DNA of 64,000 nucleotides, taken from NCBI GenBank assembly GCA_019058365.1, contig JAHPZE010000001.1, positions 96,001 through 160,000 on the forward strand, written 5' to 3'. The position numbers and the translations under genes are program-made. The stretch's first letter is position 1. Each line of letters starts with the position of its first letter. The notes under the pieces are model-generated. The model made no database searches. It was not told the DNA's origin and saw only the letters and a program-made list of their open reading frames with translations. Of this stretch, positions 28,711-51,486 are shown piece after piece. The stretch comes from Promethearchaeota archaeon. Lineage in GTDB: Archaea > Asgardarchaeota > Lokiarchaeia > Sigyniarchaeales > SOKP01.

Positions 28711-29346
28711 TCAAAATTTAATAATATCTAAATCTTCTAACTTTTTTAGTATTTCATTTATTTCTGTCCTTTTTTTATTTAAATTTCTTGAAATTTTCAA
28801 GGGAGAATCTTTTCCAGTGCATTGTAATGCAACTTGAAAGTCAAAATCAGCAATCATTCCCATGGATAGAACTTTTTCTAATACACTTTTAGCAACTATT
28901 AAATTTGGAAAAACTTCAGCTATCTTTCCGCCAATTGTAAGATTTTCTATATCCGCAATTAATGTTTGAAATCTACTTTTATCTGTTGTTGCCCTAAAAT
29001 TTTTAAGATCAGATTGGTGCTTTTTCCAAAAACGATTGGCTATTTTATGGATAATTTCCTCAATTTTGTCAGTATTATCATCAGCATCTGAAATTGAGCA
29101 AAATAAAATCCTTGATAATGGGTGATAGTAAATGAAAATGGTTGAATCTTCTGATTGTAATATTCTATCCATTTCATTTACTCTTCTCCCTTTTACCATA
29201 GCTTTTTGAATTATATCAATGGTTATATTAATTGCTTTAAAAAAACCAGTTATTATATCATCTTGAATTTTCTTTAATTCTTTAAATGTTGATTCTAAAA
29301 GGGATATCCCATTATCCCCATCAATTAGATAAATCTTATAAATCAA
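28711..29346 (-). CDS. Longin-like domain plus C-terminal winged-helix protein
   Basis: IYLIDGDNGISLLE...IITGFFKAI longin-like start; C-terminal SPLKISRNL..KRTEINEILKKLEDLDII is wHTH-like. Start is a non-ATG codon (TTG). Confidence 0.65.
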   Translation of the reverse strand: MIYKIYLIDGDNGISLLESTFKELKKIQDDIITGFFKAINITIDIIQKAMVKGRRVNEMDRILQSEDSTIFIYYHPLSRILFCSISDADDNTDKIEEIIHKIANRFWKKHQSDLKNFRATTDKSRFQTLIADIENLTIGGKIAEVFPNLIVAKSVLEKVLSMGMIADFDFQVALQCTGKDSPLKISRNLNKKRTEINEILKKLEDLDIIKF

Positions 29347-30800: not shown

Positions 30801-32273
30801 TTAGATATATGTATGAATTAAGTCAACAAGATTTTTTGAAAAATCTGGCAAGTTTTTTTCAATTTTTTCAATTTCAGAAGACTTTTCTAAAAATAGAAGT
30901 AGATACAAATTATATTTCTCGACTGTTATTTTTTTGAAGATTACTTTTTTAGATGTATCAGTAATACCAGATGATACAATAAAATCCTGTTCTAATAATT
31001 TATATTCCTTAAAATTTTTATAAAGGGATTGAAAATGAGGTGCCGAGATTTCAAATACTCTTCCAGAAATTTCTGTTTTGGAGAAACTGGATAAGATTAT
31101 TCCATTTTCATTCAATAATAAAATAGCATCTGAATTTGTTTTTTTAGCAAATTTTTTTAGTTGATTTCTGAATAGTTCACGATTTGGACTTAATTGTGAT
31201 AAACCAAAAGAATATGCTGTAATCAGGCTCCAATGATCAAAAATACTAGTTTGGAAAATTTTAATAAAAAATCTCTCAGAATTCTCCTTAATCCCATCAG
31301 CAATAATTTCTAAGCTTTTAAAGATATCTTCAGAACCTTTTAAGTCAGGATCGAATTTGTTTATGCAAATGACGATTGGAGGAAATTCCTCTAATTCTAC
31401 TAAAGAGTTTAAAAGAGTTCTAAACAATTCAAGAGCCTCATTTATTCTATCTACATCTTGAATATCTATGAAGAAAAACATTAAATCAATATTATATAGA
31501 TAAATTTTACTTTGCTCTAGGAATTTTTCTCGATATTTTTTTTGACCCCCTAAATCCCATACTGATATCAGTGAATTTTGTTCTTCGAAAATATTTTCTT
31601 CAGTTCTCTCAACACCTTTAGTTGGCAAAGCCTTGATGATTTCAGAGTATTTTCTTCTAATGCCATGCACAAAACTAGTCTTTCCCGCCTTATCTAATCC
31701 CGTAAGTAAAATTTTTATTTGTCTTTTTGTTGAAAAGGGATCTTTTAGTTCCATAGCGAACTCGAAAAGCTCTTCTCTTAGATCTTCCATAATGTTTTCT
31801 CTTTCATTATGTTCTTTATTGATTTGAATTAAGTTTGCAGTTTTATCTATGATGATTCTCAAATATTTCATATTCTCATAAAAAAAAACTCTATCATTTT
31901 CATTTATCAAAACAGTAATAGTAGCAGCTAAAGCTTTACCACGAGCTTTTGCATCAGGAATGAGAAAAAAATAAGTTAGACCATTTAGTTTTAGATCAGG
32001 GAAAGGTAATATTCCAAAGTAATTAACACCCTCAGTAGTTTCTCCGTTTTGATATGTACTATCCCCCATAAGGAGAGAGATAGTTTTCATAGCAATTGAA
32101 AGACCTGCACTTTCATCCATATCCTTAGGCCAGTAAATTTTAGGCGTAGGACCATTCTCATCAAAAAGACTTAATACAATTGCTTTTATTATATTAGCTT
32201 TAAGATCAGACTTTTCTCCTTCAGTTGGTTTTTCTCTCTTTGATTTGGCTTCTGTTTTTGTCAAAAAATCCAC
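30801..32273 (-). CDS. uDENN/longin-like domain + Rag/Arf-like small GTPase + roadblock-like domain
   Basis: N-terminal LSLFDENGP..., FFLIPDAKARG; G1 GLDKAGKTS, G2 PTKG, G3 WDLGGQ, G4 NKFD, G5 TSIFD; C-terminal DAILLLNENGIILS. Confidence 0.85.
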   Translation of the reverse strand: MDFLTKTEAKSKREKPTEGEKSDLKANIIKAIVLSLFDENGPTPKIYWPKDMDESAGLSIAMKTISLLMGDSTYQNGETTEGVNYFGILPFPDLKLNGLTYFFLIPDAKARGKALAATITVLINENDRVFFYENMKYLRIIIDKTANLIQINKEHNERENIMEDLREELFEFAMELKDPFSTKRQIKILLTGLDKAGKTSFVHGIRRKYSEIIKALPTKGVERTEENIFEEQNSLISVWDLGGQKKYREKFLEQSKIYLYNIDLMFFFIDIQDVDRINEALELFRTLLNSLVELEEFPPIVICINKFDPDLKGSEDIFKSLEIIADGIKENSERFFIKIFQTSIFDHWSLITAYSFGLSQLSPNRELFRNQLKKFAKKTNSDAILLLNENGIILSSFSKTEISGRVFEISAPHFQSLYKNFKEYKLLEQDFIVSSGITDTSKKVIFKKITVEKYNLYLLLFLEKSSEIEKIEKNLPDFSKNLVDLIHTYI

Positions 32274-32424: not shown

Positions 32425-34194
32425 TTAAGAATAAAACTTTATACATGATAGGTTTGAATTTTTACAGAATGTTTCAATTAATTCTCTAGGTGTGAGATTA
32501 ATTTTTTTTAAATTTATTAATTCAACAGCACCATTATGAATAAATAGATGGAGATCTCCTTGAACTTTTAACATATTTAAAAAATCACCCTCAATATCAT
32601 TTCTATAATGAATGGAGTTAGTATACATATTTTTTTCTGAAAACCCTTTAACTTTCAATGGAAAGTGTTTCAAATCTAGTTTAGTAAATCTATGAATTGC
32701 TCTTCTAGAAGGATTTTCACTTAATATGTATTTTTTATTATCCCTATTGGATAATTCTGAACATATAATATTTATCTCATTTAGAATTTTCTTGCTAAGC
32801 TTGATTGCGTCTGAATGCTCATGAAGTTCATAATTTGTTAAATATTTAATTGATTCATTCAATCCAACTACACTTATTGATAAACTTTGTTCCTCAAGCT
32901 GAAACAAAGCTTCGCCGTTAATTGTGCTACTACAAATAGGTAAATGATTTGAATTCATCCTTTTTTTTATTATACTAAATTTCTTCAATAAAATACTCGA
33001 GCATAAATTTATTTTTGAAGTTAATAGTTCTAAAAATTCATCCTCATTCCTGCTAATATATGCATAACGAGGTAAGTTTAAGCTAATATTTTGAAGCATA
33101 CCATAATTAAATTGGCCAGTTTGTGATATTTTCTTAAGAAATCTATTTTTATATTCATCTAAACAGAAGTTCATAAAATAAGATGAGGTTATTGTTGCAG
33201 ATTCCTCCCAAAAACTCGGAATTATATCAACCATTTCCTCCAATAATTTATTATCCACTATCAATTGATGTGAAGGACTTAAAATAGAATTTTTACTATA
33301 TATTTCTTTTAAAATAAGGATAATGGATTTAAGTAATTTTTGAGTTCCTTCCCAATAATTTCCATAAATATTTTCAATTTTTCCTCCAGGAAGTATAGCG
33401 GGAACTTGAGCTAAAGCTTCAAAAATAGAGAATGATGAAGATATTGATAATTCAGAAACATTTCGTCCAATAATAAGCGGTAATTGATTAATATCATAGA
33501 ATAATTCTCTAAGATTTTCCATTATTGAAGCTTCTGGTAAATTATACGCATATGGTGCTAAAAAAGTAGTTATAAAATTCAAACCTTGATTACCATAAAA
33601 TTCAGTCTGTGTCATTATTAACCATTTCGATAGATGATTCAAAGCACCTCTAAGATCATTTGCTGGTTTTTGTTTAGTATTTGGTAAACCATTTTTTAAA
33701 ATAAATCGAAAATCCCAGAATTGACTAAATGGTCTTGAATCAAAGTAATTTAGTCCATTAATATGAATATCACCATATAAATGTGCTTTAGATTCTTCAC
33801 TATCTAATATTCTTAAATGCGTATATTCTTCAGCAATCTTATCAGCTGCCCAATGATGTATTTTTTCAGGATTCATCTGCTCATTTTGTCTATCACTTGG
33901 CCCTTTTTCTAGAATTTCTTCATAATCCATCAAGGGTATTCCAATTCGAGTATATAATTTACGTTCATTTTCAAAATGTTGTTCAGAAAGTATTGAACAG
34001 ACTATTTCTCTTATATGTGGGCCAGAAAGAAATTTAATTCCTGAGCTAATAATTCTTCGAACAACTAATTCAGTAATATGCTTTGCGTTTGTCTCACTCA
34101 TTTCAGTTTCTTTTAGAATACTCTCGAAAATCTTAGATGGATCAAATTCAGCAATATTTCCCTCAGTTCTAAAAACTTTTGGTAACAACTCCAT
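32425..34194 (-). CDS. ATP-cone plus class III ribonucleotide reductase (NrdD)-like protein, degenerate and C-terminally truncated
   Basis: ATP-cone (VFRTEG.IAEFDPSKI..SI..ET), AHLYGDIHI, QNISLNLPR.A, SISVVGLNE, YTNSIH. No finger-loop GCR, C-terminal CxxC pair or RxxGY glycyl-radical motif. Confidence 0.8.
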   Translation of the reverse strand: MELLPKVFRTEGNIAEFDPSKIFESILKETEMSETNAKHITELVVRRIISSGIKFLSGPHIREIVCSILSEQHFENERKLYTRIGIPLMDYEEILEKGPSDRQNEQMNPEKIHHWAADKIAEEYTHLRILDSEESKAHLYGDIHINGLNYFDSRPFSQFWDFRFILKNGLPNTKQKPANDLRGALNHLSKWLIMTQTEFYGNQGLNFITTFLAPYAYNLPEASIMENLRELFYDINQLPLIIGRNVSELSISSSFSIFEALAQVPAILPGGKIENIYGNYWEGTQKLLKSIILILKEIYSKNSILSPSHQLIVDNKLLEEMVDIIPSFWEESATITSSYFMNFCLDEYKNRFLKKISQTGQFNYGMLQNISLNLPRYAYISRNEDEFLELLTSKINLCSSILLKKFSIIKKRMNSNHLPICSSTINGEALFQLEEQSLSISVVGLNESIKYLTNYELHEHSDAIKLSKKILNEINIICSELSNRDNKKYILSENPSRRAIHRFTKLDLKHFPLKVKGFSEKNMYTNSIHYRNDIEGDFLNMLKVQGDLHLFIHNGAVELINLKKINLTPRELIETFCKNSNLSCIKFYS

Positions 34195-35266: not shown

Positions 35267-36337
35267 TTATTTTATTAATCCTAAATAATCCTTTAATTGC
35301 TTTTTTACTATGCTAATTGCAAAAGCTATTATTCCACTTTTAACTTTTGGATGAGAAAACAATATTAAAAGCATATCTTTAACGCTAGGATTATTTCGAT
35401 CAATTGGAGCTAAATCCAATATACCTTCAGTTCCCCTAACTGAAATTGATTTTAATAAACCAGCATCTAATCCCTCTACTATATCAGTTCCTATCATTGA
35501 AAGATTCATACCAACTGTTGCAAAAAGAGAATCAGAAATTCTACTGGATATTGCCGATGCCAATATAGTCCCATCCGTTTTTATTATAGCTGATGCTTCT
35601 ATATTTAAATCCAATTTTAATAATTGTTTTAAAATTTCATTCATACTAGAAGGGGGTATTTTTTCCTCATGATCTTTTTTATCAAGATGTTTCTCCTTAG
35701 GAGTTCCTAATTTTTTTACTGAAATTTTTTTCGAAAGAAATCCTAATACCTCAGTCATATCTTTTTCTAATCGTTTTTGTTTTAAAACAGCTGTATCACT
35801 TTCAGTAGATTCTACAGGGATAGGAGATAATGGAACAGAGGTTTTCTTATCCTTTTTTTCCAAAACGGAATTTTTAAGCTCTAGAAAAGCATCTGAAATT
35901 GCATCTTCAGAACGAGTCGGTGGAGATGATGGAGATATAATCTCCCTGTGAGAATCTTGAATAAAACCTTTAAATGGTTGTGGAGTAATTTCTTGTAAAC
36001 CTTTTGATTCACTTTGTTCTAAGGTAGAACCATTTTCTCTTAAGGAACTACTTTCTAATTCGTTATTAGATGACGAAGGAATTTCTTGCAACTTCATTTG
36101 ATTCTCTAATATCTCAGGTTCTTTAGGAATTTCATGTAAATCTAATTTTTCTTTTTTCTTCTCAGTTTCAATTGGTGTTTTTACAGGTTTTTTTTTTTCT
36201 TTTTTCTTTCCTTTCTCAGTTTTTTGATCCGTGGGTCTAGGATGCTTTGTAGGAACGGGTAATAAAGCGCCACACATTCTACAAACGCGATTGATATTTT
36301 CATTATTGGTAGTACCACAATTCTGACATATAATCAA
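35267..36337 (-). CDS. Zinc ribbon + disordered linker + roadblock/LC7 domain protein
   Basis: N-terminal CQNC...CRMCG; P/S/E/K-rich linker; C-terminal MNEILKQL...IEASAIIKTDGTILASA roadblock pattern. Confidence 0.8.
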   Translation of the reverse strand: MIICQNCGTTNNENINRVCRMCGALLPVPTKHPRPTDQKTEKGKKKEKKKPVKTPIETEKKKEKLDLHEIPKEPEILENQMKLQEIPSSSNNELESSSLRENGSTLEQSESKGLQEITPQPFKGFIQDSHREIISPSSPPTRSEDAISDAFLELKNSVLEKKDKKTSVPLSPIPVESTESDTAVLKQKRLEKDMTEVLGFLSKKISVKKLGTPKEKHLDKKDHEEKIPPSSMNEILKQLLKLDLNIEASAIIKTDGTILASAISSRISDSLFATVGMNLSMIGTDIVEGLDAGLLKSISVRGTEGILDLAPIDRNNPSVKDMLLILFSHPKVKSGIIAFAISIVKKQLKDYLGLIK

Positions 36338-36588: not shown

Positions 36589-37557
36589 TTACCTATATAA
36601 TATTTCTTTAAGTAAATTTGCGAAAGACTCGAGATCTTCTTTATGGAAAACCGGATCTTCTTTTAGGAGTATTAAATAGTATGGATCTGAATCTTTCTTT
36701 AGTGTGATTTGCTTAAATATAAAATTTTTACCAAATCTTTGAACTATCATTCTACTTTCATATCTATCTTCTGCTACACCAGTATACTGGAAGCTATCAT
36801 TGAGTGTGAGAAAATATGGCGTTGAGGCGGTGAGTAGATGCTTGGTTTCATCATCTTTATAATATGATCCGATTATAAGAGAGTTATCATCAATTATCAC
36901 AACTCCTTCTGAGTCAACTTTTTTAGCAAATTCTAAAATAGTTTTTTCGATTAATTCTGATTTTGGATATAAGCTTAAAAGGATTTCAGACATAGCAGTA
37001 ATAATAGAGCCAAAATCATAAATAGAAGTTTCATAATAATATAATTCCTTATATTCAGTGGCTCTTAATTTATCTTTTAAATCAATTATTAAAGATTCCA
37101 TTTCATTTTGTGCACTTCTTCGTAATGCGGGATCATATTTATGAAGAAACACATATATTGGGGGTTTAATTTCTAATTTTTTAAACTGCTCTAATACATC
37201 TTTAAAATAACTTATAGCTTCAGGTATTCGAGGTTTATTTTGGATGTCAATTACATAAATAGCAATTTCAGTTCCTTCGAAATATTTACCAGGATTCTTC
37301 AAATAGGCAATTCTATAACTCAATTGGCCCCCTAGGTCCCATTCTGATATTTCTTTACCAAGAAAATCAAAAATTCTTTTCTGAGCACCTCGAGTTGGAG
37401 AAAGGATTGCAATTTTTGAAAATTCTCTTTGAAGGGCAAGAATTATTGAAGTTTTACCTGCCTCGTCTAATCCTGTAAATAATATCTTAGAAATTTCAGG
37501 TTTGGGGGGTTCTTCCTTTTTTAAGTATAAAATTGATTGTTTAAGATTCTTTTCCAA
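36589..37557 (-). CDS. Rag/Gtr-like small GTPase with C-terminal roadblock-like domain
   Basis: G1 GLDEAGKTS, PTRG, WDLGGQ, Rag-type G4 HKYD and G5 TSIYD; C-terminal EGVVIIDDNSLIIGS. Start placed at TTG 37557 after AGGTGA (ORF track starts at 37569). Confidence 0.85.
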   Translation of the reverse strand: MEKNLKQSILYLKKEEPPKPEISKILFTGLDEAGKTSIILALQREFSKIAILSPTRGAQKRIFDFLGKEISEWDLGGQLSYRIAYLKNPGKYFEGTEIAIYVIDIQNKPRIPEAISYFKDVLEQFKKLEIKPPIYVFLHKYDPALRRSAQNEMESLIIDLKDKLRATEYKELYYYETSIYDFGSIITAMSEILLSLYPKSELIEKTILEFAKKVDSEGVVIIDDNSLIIGSYYKDDETKHLLTASTPYFLTLNDSFQYTGVAEDRYESRMIVQRFGKNFIFKQITLKKDSDPYYLILLKEDPVFHKEDLESFANLLKEILYR

Positions 37558-37725
37558 AGTGTATTTCACCTTTGAACTTATAAAAGTATTATAAATATAA
37601 ATATATTCTTTTTGTAAAATATTATATTAATTCATACTATTTTAGATTTTGTATTGTTTAATGTTGTTTTAAAAATATTTTGATCTTTACAATTTCTATT
37701 ATAAATAAAAGAGCGAATAAAATGA

Positions 37726-40196: not shown

Positions 40197-41699
40197 ATGG
40201 AAGAATTACTTAAATCTTCAATTATAAAGGGATTTGTTCTAAGTGTCTTTGGAGAACTTGGTCCAACTCCAATTTATTGCTTCCCTAATTATGTTACTGA
40301 AAAGGAGTTCAAGGAACTTTCCAAAGAATCAAAAGATCAAGGCCATCTTATTTTAACATATCGTGATATTACTCAAATTTCCATAAAAAATTTAAGCCTT
40401 TTTATTAGTGATAAGATTGTTATGGAAGAGAAGGATCTCACAAAAATTCAATATTTTGCTATTTTACCATATCCTGATTTTAACACAACTTCTCTTACCT
40501 ATTTTCATTTTATTAGGAGAGATTCTGAAGATCATTCAATCCCAACCGCATTTTCGATACTAGCAGAAGAAAAAAGCCGAAGCTTTTTATATAATAATAT
40601 AAATCGAATTAAACCAGTAGTTACTGAATTTTTCAAAATTTTTGATAAAAAGATGCTTGATTCTTACCCTCCACGTGAAAATGTTGAAAAATTTTTCCAA
40701 GATCTTTTGACAGAATTAATAGAAATTGTGAAAAACCCTTCAACTCCAATTACTACTCATAGGAAGATGAAGATTTTATTTGCAGGTTTGGATAATTCAG
40801 GCAAAACTAGTTTTTTACTTTCTGTAGATCGTAAATATAGTAAACTAATCGGTCTTAAACCCACAGCAGGAGCGAGTATAAAATCTATTGAAGCATTAGG
40901 GGCTACAATTTTTCTTTGGGATTTAGGAGGACAGAGAAAATTCCGAGAAAAATATATTAATAAAGCTGAAATCTATCTATATGAGGCTGATCTTTTATTT
41001 TACTTTATTGATATTAAAGATAGAGCTAGATTTGATGAAAGTATTGAATATCTTCAAAATCTTAAGAGTGTGATTGAAGAATTCAATCAAAATACACCAA
41101 TAGTATACATATTATCAAAAGGAGATGCTGATATCTTAAATACAGGAGAAATTAAAGAAAATATCGAATTTATAAAAACAAAGTTAAGAGAAAATGATCA
41201 AGATGACTCACTAGAAACATATACTACAAGTATCTTCCAAATCTTTACAATTCTACGAGCCTTTTCTTCAGGTATCTCAAAATTAAGTCCAAATAGAGAT
41301 CTGATTAATCATAATCTTAAAAAATTCTCTTTAATGACAGAATCATATTTAACGCTACTTTTAAGTGTTGACGGTTTAGTCCTTGCCAATTTCTATGATA
41401 AACAAACTATGGGTTTAACGAAAATTCCTAAATCAGAAGTAATGAATGTATTTGAAATCTCTGCACCTCAATTTACGGTTTTATTTAAAATATTTTCAAA
41501 ATTTAAAGCATTACAACAAAATGAAGCTTTATTTAGAGTTTCAAATACAGTAATTTTTATTAAAAGAATCCAAATTGAAGAAAACGATATGTTTCTCTTA
41601 TTTTTAGTAGATAATGAAAATAAAAAAGATAAAATTGATGAAGAATTGCCAGGATTCTTAAAATACACCCAAGATTTACTTTTACGATATATTGCTTAA
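40197..41699 (+). CDS. uDENN/longin-like domain + Rag/Arf-like small GTPase + roadblock-like domain (paralogue of 30801..32273)
   Basis: LSVFGELGPTP, YFAILPYPD; G1 GLDNSGKTS, PTAG, WDLGGQ, atypical G4 SKGD, TSIFQ; SKLSPNRDL and FEISAPQF shared with the paralogue. Confidence 0.85.
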   Translation: MEELLKSSIIKGFVLSVFGELGPTPIYCFPNYVTEKEFKELSKESKDQGHLILTYRDITQISIKNLSLFISDKIVMEEKDLTKIQYFAILPYPDFNTTSLTYFHFIRRDSEDHSIPTAFSILAEEKSRSFLYNNINRIKPVVTEFFKIFDKKMLDSYPPRENVEKFFQDLLTELIEIVKNPSTPITTHRKMKILFAGLDNSGKTSFLLSVDRKYSKLIGLKPTAGASIKSIEALGATIFLWDLGGQRKFREKYINKAEIYLYEADLLFYFIDIKDRARFDESIEYLQNLKSVIEEFNQNTPIVYILSKGDADILNTGEIKENIEFIKTKLRENDQDDSLETYTTSIFQIFTILRAFSSGISKLSPNRDLINHNLKKFSLMTESYLTLLLSVDGLVLANFYDKQTMGLTKIPKSEVMNVFEISAPQFTVLFKIFSKFKALQQNEALFRVSNTVIFIKRIQIEENDMFLLFLVDNENKKDKIDEELPGFLKYTQDLLLRYIA

Positions 41700-50442: not shown

Positions 50443-51486
50443 ATGAAACGTCAAATAATTCAAGGAATAGTATACATAGAAATGAATGATGAATTGGGAC
50501 CTAATCCTGTCGCATGGCTTCCTAATACATTCACACAAATGGATTTAATTAATATAAGCATTAAAGTATTAACAATCCTATCGGGTGAAGACGGTCTTAT
50601 ACCTGAATCTTTAGTAATCCTCCCCTTTCCTTCAAGGAATTTAAAGGGAATTGTTAAATACATTAAATGGGCTGATTCATTAAGACGAGGAGGTATTGGT
50701 CAATCGGCTCTTGTATTGTTGTTTAAAGAAATAGATGATGTAATTTTTTATAAATATATTAATGATCTATCAATTCCTTTTAATAACCTCACACCAGAAA
50801 TAATAAATTTAGAAAATTCAAAAGCATCTAGAGAAGATTTCATAAGATTACTTGAACACCTTGAATTTAATATATCCGCTCTTTTAGAAGAATTAAAAAT
50901 TCAAGAAATGGCTCAACAAGAGAGTAAAGCATTCCCTGATCAACAACTTAAAGACCGAAATTTAATAGATTATCAATTTAAAATTATAATTTGTGGAGAT
51001 CCGCACGTTGGTAAAACTTCATTGATATTGAGATATACCAATGATGCATTTAGAAGAAATTACGTACCAACTTTAGGTGTTATGGTTTCAGATAAGATCT
51101 TTAAGATTGATGATTTTATCATCCAATTAACGTTATGGGACATCGGAGGTCAGCAAAAATTTCAAACAATGAGAAGACAATTTTATCGAGGTTCTGACGC
51201 TGTATTCTTGGTTTTTGATTTAACAAGAATTGACTCCTATAATAATATTCCTAAATGGTTTTCAGACGTAGCTGAACAGCTTAAAAATCGTTCTGAAGAA
51301 TTAATGGGATTTATTATTGGAAATAAAAAAGATTTAACTAACCAAATACAGGTAACTTCTGAAATGGCAAATCAAATTGCAGATCAATTAGGAATAGGAT
51401 TCATAGAAACATCAGCACTACAAGGAGAAAATGTAGATTATGCTTTCTCTACAATCGCTAACTTATTACTTAAATCCCGTTTATAA
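50443..51486 (+). CDS. uDENN/longin-like domain fused to a Rab-like small GTPase
   Basis: N-terminal MNDELGPNP, ILPFP, WADSLRRGG; G1 GDPHVGKTS, G2 YVPTLG, G3 WDIGGQ, QFYRGS, G4 NKKD, G5 ETSAL. Confidence 0.87.
   Translation: MKRQIIQGIVYIEMNDELGPNPVAWLPNTFTQMDLINISIKVLTILSGEDGLIPESLVILPFPSRNLKGIVKYIKWADSLRRGGIGQSALVLLFKEIDDVIFYKYINDLSIPFNNLTPEIINLENSKASREDFIRLLEHLEFNISALLEELKIQEMAQQESKAFPDQQLKDRNLIDYQFKIIICGDPHVGKTSLILRYTNDAFRRNYVPTLGVMVSDKIFKIDDFIIQLTLWDIGGQQKFQTMRRQFYRGSDAVFLVFDLTRIDSYNNIPKWFSDVAEQLKNRSEELMGFIIGNKKDLTNQIQVTSEMANQIADQLGIGFIETSALQGENVDYAFSTIANLLLKSRL

Follow-up and report, generated by a model that had tools for sequence, protein, structure and literature searches.

Two genes in the window analyzed here, a stretch of 64,000 nucleotides from a Lokiarchaeia genome (contig JAHPZE010000001.1), raise the question of whether a longin protein without an Arg finger could be the partner of a paralogue that appears to have one. 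Both genes, A and B hereafter, encode a longin domain fused to a Rag-like G domain and a roadblock domain (Table 1). The original prediction had described B as a protein of the same architecture as A, with shared motifs, whose finger loop is replaced and whose G4 motif is aberrant, and had proposed that the two may form an asymmetric heterodimer, joined by way of their longins as well as their roadblocks, in which B is a possible non-catalytic subunit. The architecture is as described: A and B align over their whole length (34% identity, E value of 3e-89), the motifs named as shared are present, and A also carries a Rag-like G domain (Pfam Gtr1_RagA) and a roadblock. The profile of B matches RagA over the G domain and roadblock, and its best PDB match by both sequence and Foldseek is LokiRagO (8YL2), consistent with a Rag/Gtr-like GTPase, in which a Ras-superfamily G domain is followed by a roadblock. 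Beyond the longin, the chain of B consists of these two domains, without C-terminal DENN (or NPRL) domains, and the last longin helix is joined to the G domain by a linker of only ~11 residues.

Table 1. Positions of genes A and B, their parts, and related features. Positions are those of the window unless a locus is named.
Feature	Position	Strand	Basis or remark
Clade B gene, intact ORF, 500 aa: Arg-less longin, Rag-like G domain, roadblock	40197..41699	+	
B longin domain, GP-type, FLCN/C9orf72/Lst4-like fold	40215..40736 (aa 7-180)	+	Model pLDDT 87.5; VIA-align matches
B GP motif, G22-P23	40260..40265	+	Conserved in 60/60 and 59/60 B sequences; motif definition from PMC12290439
B helical insert after β2, ~20 aa	40287..40358	+	Not in A of families f1 and f3; present in the single f4 gene
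B helix α1, putative GTPase-docking face	40359..40403	+	Role inferred from PMC8213707
B β4-β5 loop, RRDSEDH, aa 107-113	40515..40535	+	Without Arg finger; varies among orthologues
B Rag-like G domain	40764..41282	+	Pfam Gtr1_RagA, E 3e-20
B G-domain motifs	G1 40785-40808, G2 Thr 40863-40865, G3 40917-40934, G5 41226-41237	+	
B G4 variant, SKGD, aa 307-310	41115..41126	+	S/T-K-x-D across clade B
B C-terminal roadblock, as in Rag GTPases	41295..41696	+	Profile and Foldseek matches
Clade A paralogue, 490 aa, same layout as B, putative Arg finger; candidate partner	30801..32273	-	End-to-end alignment, Pfam
A DAKARG loop (R111 at 31941-31943)	31938..31955	-	ARG invariant; weak Pfam Folliculin match here
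Rag-roadblock GTPase encoded between the two genes and orthologous to LokiRagO (PDB 8YL2, homotetramer with GTP); candidate substrate or alternative partner	36589..37569	-	
Stand-alone Arg-less longins of family f4	L017:6366-6902, L030:1471-1977, L044:1468-1974		Divergent from the fused gene

The longin domain of B has the fold of a uDENN-type longin. Its top VIA-align match was 8YQG (Z score of 16.0, rmsd of 2.6, 145 residues aligned), followed by Lst4 (Z score of 12.9, rmsd of 3.1, 137 residues aligned), a chain of the C9orf72-SMCR8 complex (12.7), two folliculin-complex chains (12.1 and 11.1), a second C9orf72-complex chain (10.3), and a GATOR1 chain (9.9), with ranks 2 to 4 tied and chain identities other than Lst4 deduced from ranges. 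TRAPP and adaptin longins scored lower (9.8 and less). The best eukaryotic fold matches of the B longin are thus all longin-GAP subunits.

The feature that sets A apart from B is the loop that, in the structure model of B, sits between β4 and β5, the site of longin GAP fingers (bioRxiv 10.64898/2026.01.05.697756). DAKARG of A, including R111, aligns with RRDSEDH of B, which is one residue shorter. A110-R111-G112 is invariant in 120/120 close A orthologues, while xRG was found in 0/120 close B orthologues. In families f1 and f3, 60 A-B pairs were matched by genome: ARG is present in all 60 A sequences, with a loop span of 18, and RG in none of the B sequences, 56 of which have a loop span of 17 and which share no conserved loop Arg. 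A tree of these pairs from which the loop columns were omitted resolves the two clades with a support of 1.0. The close orthologues of B likewise share its form of G4, having S (119) or T (1) followed by K-x-D in all 120. Since the loop and G4 differences are clade-wide across the orthologue sets, they are not due to chance, and the asymmetry between an Arg-bearing A and an Arg-less B is real, as the original prediction had it, and conserved. Related longins fused to Rab-like GTPases also carry RG, so loss of the Arg in B is the likelier direction of change.

Gene A combines a GP motif with a conserved Arg between β4 and β5, the features of a catalytic subunit of the FLCN/SMCR8 type. Weak matches to the Pfam Folliculin family were found in 15 of 30 family members, with A itself under the curated cutoff. 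An HMM search against the PDB aimed at a residue-level alignment of the A loop to FLCN/SMCR8 (R111 to FLCN R164) returned no match, so the proposed equivalence of R111 and the FLCN finger rests on motif, position, and the weak Pfam matches. We also considered whether B might be catalytic by way of another Arg. R107 and R108, within the loop itself, had been named as possible substitutes, and we rejected them because they are not conserved, with Arg in 49/120 and 5/120 close orthologues and in 9/60 and 4/60 of the matched pairs, respectively. Another candidate is R56, where helix α1 begins: this Arg is present in 54/60 B sequences and absent from A; R128 and R137 are conserved too. However, R56 is replaced by Q, T, or L in the other 6/60, and the fingers of characterized longin GAPs all lie in the β4-β5 loop (bioRxiv 10.64898/2026.01.05.697756; PMC8213707; PMC9473554), and we consider catalysis by another Arg of the B longin highly improbable.

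Ten longins of this kind were detected in the genome, and B is the only one without RG. A third member in the window (50443-51486, + strand) has a DSLRRGG loop and is part of a fusion with a complete Rab-like GTPase, a type of RG-bearing protein that is common across the Lokiarchaeia, with several per genome in other families. Seven further RG-bearing longins are found elsewhere in the genome (G000 C20:15492-18881, C48, C35, C26, C34, C36), six in proteins of 164 to 418 aa and one within a 1130-aa P-loop protein. In families f16 to f18 (L057-L067, L077), related longins occur in proteins of 360 to 430 aa that have no G domain, some with an RGG loop and others lacking it, and these are candidate catalytic/non-catalytic pairs in another Asgard class.

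The second difference between the paralogues concerns the G domain, where G4 reads SKGD in B and NKFD in A. Across the 60 matched pairs, the first G4 residue of B is S (49) or T (11), followed by K in 60/60 and D in 59/60, and B therefore departs from the H-K-x-D of eukaryotic Rags; the first residue in A is N or H. The SKGD variant stands as described, but to call it aberrant is an overstatement, since the Lys and Asp are kept and S/T occurs in 3/120 A orthologues as well. Nor is it a strain-specific lesion or decay, a reading that we rejected given that the variant is clade-wide and that the G domain of B is conserved like that of A (~40% each across families). The implied loss of nucleotide function was not supported. 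In family f1, G1, G2, G3, and G5 are intact, and the G1 Lys/Thr, G2 Thr, G3 Asp/Gly/Gln, and G4 Lys/Asp are present in 119 to 120 of 120 sequences. CobW, a guanine nucleotide-binding protein, has SKxD as its G4 (PMC7895991), S/T at the first G4 position is common in active GTPases (PMC7895991; bioRxiv 10.1101/2019.12.24.888222), TKxD is the usual G4 in several families, and the bond of the G4 Asn in Ras has been computed to be the weakest guanine contact (PMC11594714). Given the intact motifs, the conserved G domain, and the SKxD precedent, we conclude from sequence that B most likely binds GTP or GDP. The term non-catalytic accordingly fits the longin of B, which is without an Arg finger, but not its G domain.

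A different picture is seen in family f3, where the B proteins have TKxD as G4 and a WDIPG form of G3 whose next residue is Q or, in several proteins, K or S (L001:13755-15278, L006, L012, L010, and L014, MK-D1 included). In two f3 genomes (G132 and G134), the G motifs of B have decayed while the longin persists, and both roadblocks, that of A and that of B, are far more diverged (20 to 24% identity). These changes suggest that some lineages can do without hydrolysis by B but retain its longin. They are also what would be seen if B were a pseudo-GTPase, with SKGD reflecting nucleotide binding that is altered or lost and B as a whole acting as a passive partner, yet that reading is very unlikely in view of the near-invariant f1 motifs, a G domain as conserved as that of A, and the frequency of S/T in active GTPases noted above. 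The WDxPG form of G3, which we take to resemble RagC, holds in B only in f3. An assignment of B to the RagC type and A to the RagA type was inconsistent, as the f1 B profile favors RagA and an f3 protein favors Gtr2/RagC.

We asked whether the Arg-less longin shows signs of continued function. It keeps G22, P23, and K64 together with R56, Q60, E125, and R128, which is not expected of a functionless domain. On helix α1, K64 and L68 are common to A, while R56 and Q60 are B specific; R56, Q60, E125, and R128 are conserved surface residues of B's own. The GP motif is present in C9orf72 and absent from FNIP2 and NPRL3 (PMC12290439). In the ARF1 complex, the substrate is held by helices of both longins, and C9orf72 residues are required for activity (PMC8213707). 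Identity to most f3 orthologues is 27 to 33% for the B longin versus 43 to 47% for the A longin, and this faster divergence is as would be expected of a domain released from catalysis that is still functional.

Co-occurrence of the two clades, queried with the two longins among genomes that are kin and hence not independent, is high: of 134 f1 genomes, 107 have both genes, 7 only A, 11 only B, and 9 neither, and both were found in 79/88 genomes that are at least 90% complete. Every f3 genome with a match carries both. We inspected three of the 11 B-only genomes (G188, G209, and G203) and discarded them as counterexamples because all three are explained by assembly breaks; a genuine B without A was therefore never seen among the genomes inspected. 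Three A-only cases were also assembly breaks. However, in one genome that is 99% complete (G168; locus L119, contig C51), B has been cleanly deleted between 15917 and 16638, with A and its neighbors intact. A thus persists there without B, and the pair is not obligate for A. In family f4 (four genomes, 63 to 88% complete), a single fused gene has ARG, HKxD, and a B-like insert, and there is no B. In 3/3 visible flanks, a bare Arg-less longin of 170 to 180 aa, divergently oriented, lies ~1.4 to 2 kb from this A-type gene and is possibly a replacement or remnant of B.

In phylogenetic trees, the B clade has a support of 100/99 for the longin and 94/87 for the G domain plus roadblock and is sister to A plus the f4 gene. 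Its sister relationship to A in both domain trees, which contained no eukaryotic sequences, points to an origin independent of the eukaryotic subunits. In AU tests, neither placement of the f4 gene before the duplication (p = 0.40) nor grouping of the bare f4 longin with B (p = 0.16) was rejected. Outside this order, no longin-Rag-roadblock fusion was found among the loci examined (profile search of ~145 genomes), where related longins are present. Altogether, an A/B duplication early in one Lokiarchaeia order is the best explanation. With the fusion confined, among the loci examined, to that order, the pair more likely evolved in parallel to FLCN-FNIP than gave rise to it. Near-identical orthologues (58 to 83%; P0006-P0114) are labeled as Hodarchaeota, Thorarchaeota, Odinarchaeota, or Heimdallarchaeota; because the genome search placed the clade only in the Lokiarchaeia, these source labels are probably wrong. 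The genome analyzed here is assigned by the names of its homologues to the Lokiarchaeia (Promethearchaeota).

Binding of A to B, as proposed in the original prediction, is weakly supported. Complex prediction for A-B returned no interface and gave a score of 0.36 (runs of 0.36, 0.43, and 0.35; best control, 0.00), with contact agreement of at least 81% and partner pLDDT of at least 75, on a scale whose mark was passed by 58/80 solved complexes and 2/110 mismatched pairs and on which passes at 0.60 or less comprised only 7/80 solved complexes and both mismatches. The models thus weakly suggest a heterodimer, against which stand the low score and the persistence of A without B. The score may also reflect resemblance to solved Rag or longin dimers, and since close cousins of true partners pass as well, homodimers could score equally. 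Evolutionary rates across 48 genomes covary to similar degrees for A and B (ρ = 0.40), A and the RagO-type gene (0.42), and B and the RagO-type gene (0.38), versus 0.03 to 0.29 for A or B with metabolic neighbors; metabolic genes covary among themselves at up to 0.53. Equal covariation of the three pairs indicates that the three Rags act in one pathway and does not point to a specific contact. At the level of domains, we saw no excess of A-B covariation for longin with longin or roadblock with roadblock (roadblocks, ρ = 0.15, not significant). We therefore set this analysis aside as an interface test, A-B also not being significantly above A-RagO or B-RagO. Where A and B share a contig, they lie near each other (median, 8.8 kb) in divergent orientation in 72 of 73 cases. 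Gene linkage was rejected as evidence of binding because the whole block, metabolic genes included, is equally syntenic. A promoter scan was uninformative.

These results leave room for a reading in which A and B form separate homodimers, or A is a monomeric GAP, within the same pathway, and the B longin has taken a role as a scaffold, an effector, or an exchange-factor platform, serving either its own GTPase domain or a different GTPase. The homologous Arg-less GP longin 8YQG is a crystal dimer with itself, AF2 homodimers of the MK-D1 longin-GTPases have been published (PMC10933270, Suppl. Fig. 8), and the longin/DENN GAP Avl9 works as a monomer (bioRxiv 10.64898/2026.01.05.697756). The survival of A in G168, the faster divergence of the B longin, and the pathway-wide covariation would all be compatible with such an arrangement. 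However, no genuine B-without-A genome was found among the cases inspected, an Arg-less longin adjoins the A-type gene even in f4, and the A-B complex score is weakly positive, and we consider separate homodimers or a monomeric A unlikely, if well worth keeping in mind.

Alternatively, A may not be the only partner of B or may not be its partner at all, its roadblock pairing with the LokiRagO-type Rag or with a Zn-ribbon roadblock protein (35267-36337, - strand), or its longin pairing with Arg-bearing longins such as that of the Rab fusion at 50443. The B-RagO covariation equals that of A-B, nine RG-bearing longins face a single RG-less one in the genome, and the genes for both candidate roadblock partners remain in the block. 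Against this, LokiRagO crystallized as a homotetramer (title of 8YL2), and A is the sister of B in both domain trees. Paralogous dimers usually retain the ancestral interface. We regard a partner other than A alone as quite unlikely.

Several neighbors of the pair are themselves conserved. From f1 to MK-D1, the Rag gene is flanked by A and B, and its rate covaries with both. The Zn-ribbon protein, which has a long low-complexity linker before its roadblock, follows the Rag gene in the same orientation in every f1 block examined. A protein with a longin-like N terminus and a C-terminal winged helix (28711-29346, - strand; weak TrmB match) is also near A in MK-D1. Immediately upstream of A is an ATP-cone and NrdD-like protein (32425-34194, - strand), whose counterpart is only an ATP-cone frame of ~135 to 140 aa in several relatives and is missing from f3 blocks.

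Our preferred reading, to which we assign a probability of about one-half, is that A and B form a longin GAP dimer to which B contributes the longin without the Arg as well as a nucleotide switch of its own. Its basis is the observed sequence states, folds, phylogeny, and distribution. From these we infer a GAP activity for A, nucleotide binding by B, contact between the two, and a substrate. A longin-Rag-roadblock gene would have been duplicated early in one Lokiarchaeia order to give A and B, and the B longin would then have lost its β4-β5 Arg while retaining the GP motif and helix α1. The two longins would pair to form a GAP bowl, with A supplying the finger and B holding the substrate and setting specificity, comparable to C9orf72 for SMCR8 and FNIP for FLCN. 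The G domain of B would bind guanine nucleotide and act as a switch, in this family probably with hydrolysis, and the roadblocks of A and B may provide a second, Rag-type contact. The substrate is likelier to be a GTPase in trans, either the G domain of B or a LokiRagO-type Rag, than the G domain of A itself. The longin and G domain are spaced 17 to 22 residues closer than those of the Rab fusion at 50443, and given this and the ~11-residue linker, the finger of A would probably be strained in reaching its own G domain.

More tentatively, and as a proposition that we hold more doubtful than probable, the complex of A and B may unite two kinds of asymmetry, that of a longin GAP pair with one catalytic and one non-catalytic subunit and that of a Rag pair, with the Arg of A switching off the G domain of B or of LokiRagO. 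Such a fused counterpart of FLCN-FNIP on RagA-RagC would have arisen by a single duplication, with the f4 gene next to its bare Arg-less longin and the decaying B G domains of f3 as surviving intermediates.

Parts of this system have been published. Two MK-D1 LGR proteins (WP_147663355.1 and WP_147663364.1; Tran et al. 2024, PMC10933270) are the orthologues of A and B, as judged from trees, synteny, and a published G-domain alignment that matches the two genes of genome G143, and have the same three-domain layout, so that A and B belong to the Asgard LGR proteins. In MK-D1 B, G4 is TKxD and the G3 Gln is replaced by Lys. The accessible portion of that paper depicts longin-GTPases only as homodimers and is silent on the Arg loop, on any asymmetry, and on pairing of A with B. 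FLCN-like Asgard proteins have been reported previously (bioRxiv 10.1101/2020.10.19.343400), and Asgard longins of the FLCN/SMCR8 type have the GP motif, longin fold, and Arg finger seen in A (PMC12290439). The available part of the latter study covers only Arg-bearing longins, with a GAP activity that is putative, and contains neither an Arg-less partner nor a Rag fusion. Our literature search found no report of the Arg-bearing/Arg-less asymmetry of the A-B pair, no paper on 8YL2 or 8ZLA or on the pair itself, and, in the literature found, no demonstration of GAP activity for any Asgard longin. The LGR layout, the MK-D1 orthologues, and Arg-finger Asgard longins are therefore already published, and the conserved A/B asymmetry appears to be new.

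Compared with known Rags, B shares its G domain and roadblock with RagA/B-RagC/D, Gtr1-Gtr2, LokiRagO (8YL2), and LokiRagM (8ZLA), which are its best PDB sequence and fold matches, but it differs from Rag heterodimers in its extra N-terminal longin and in S/TKxD instead of HKxD, and it fits neither the RagA nor the RagC type. 8YQG, the longin of a Lokiarchaeota roadblock-longin protein, is the best fold match of B and likewise has a GP motif and no RG loop, although it comes from a protein of other architecture and crystallized as a self-dimer. The closest functional parallel may be C9orf72-SMCR8, FLCN-FNIP/Lst7-Lst4, and NPRL2-NPRL3, each of which, like A and B, has one subunit with a finger and one without, C9orf72 also resembling B in keeping the GP motif. 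Unlike these pairs, A and B have no DENN domains and carry a Rag G domain and a roadblock on the same chain as the longin, and they are recent sisters (34% identical) known, from sequence and models, in one Lokiarchaeia order. If the pair model is true, the step from symmetric ancestors to lopsided pairs such as the eukaryotic FLCN-FNIP, SMCR8-C9orf72, NPRL2-NPRL3, and RagA-RagC becomes testable for a longin GAP with proteins of a cultured archaeon: those of MK-D1 offer a named putative finger (the R111 equivalent), a candidate Arg-less partner, and candidate substrates, one with a solved structure. As the fusion is known from a single Lokiarchaeia order, the pair would most likely exemplify an asymmetry reached in parallel with that of the eukaryotic complexes and not their direct ancestor.
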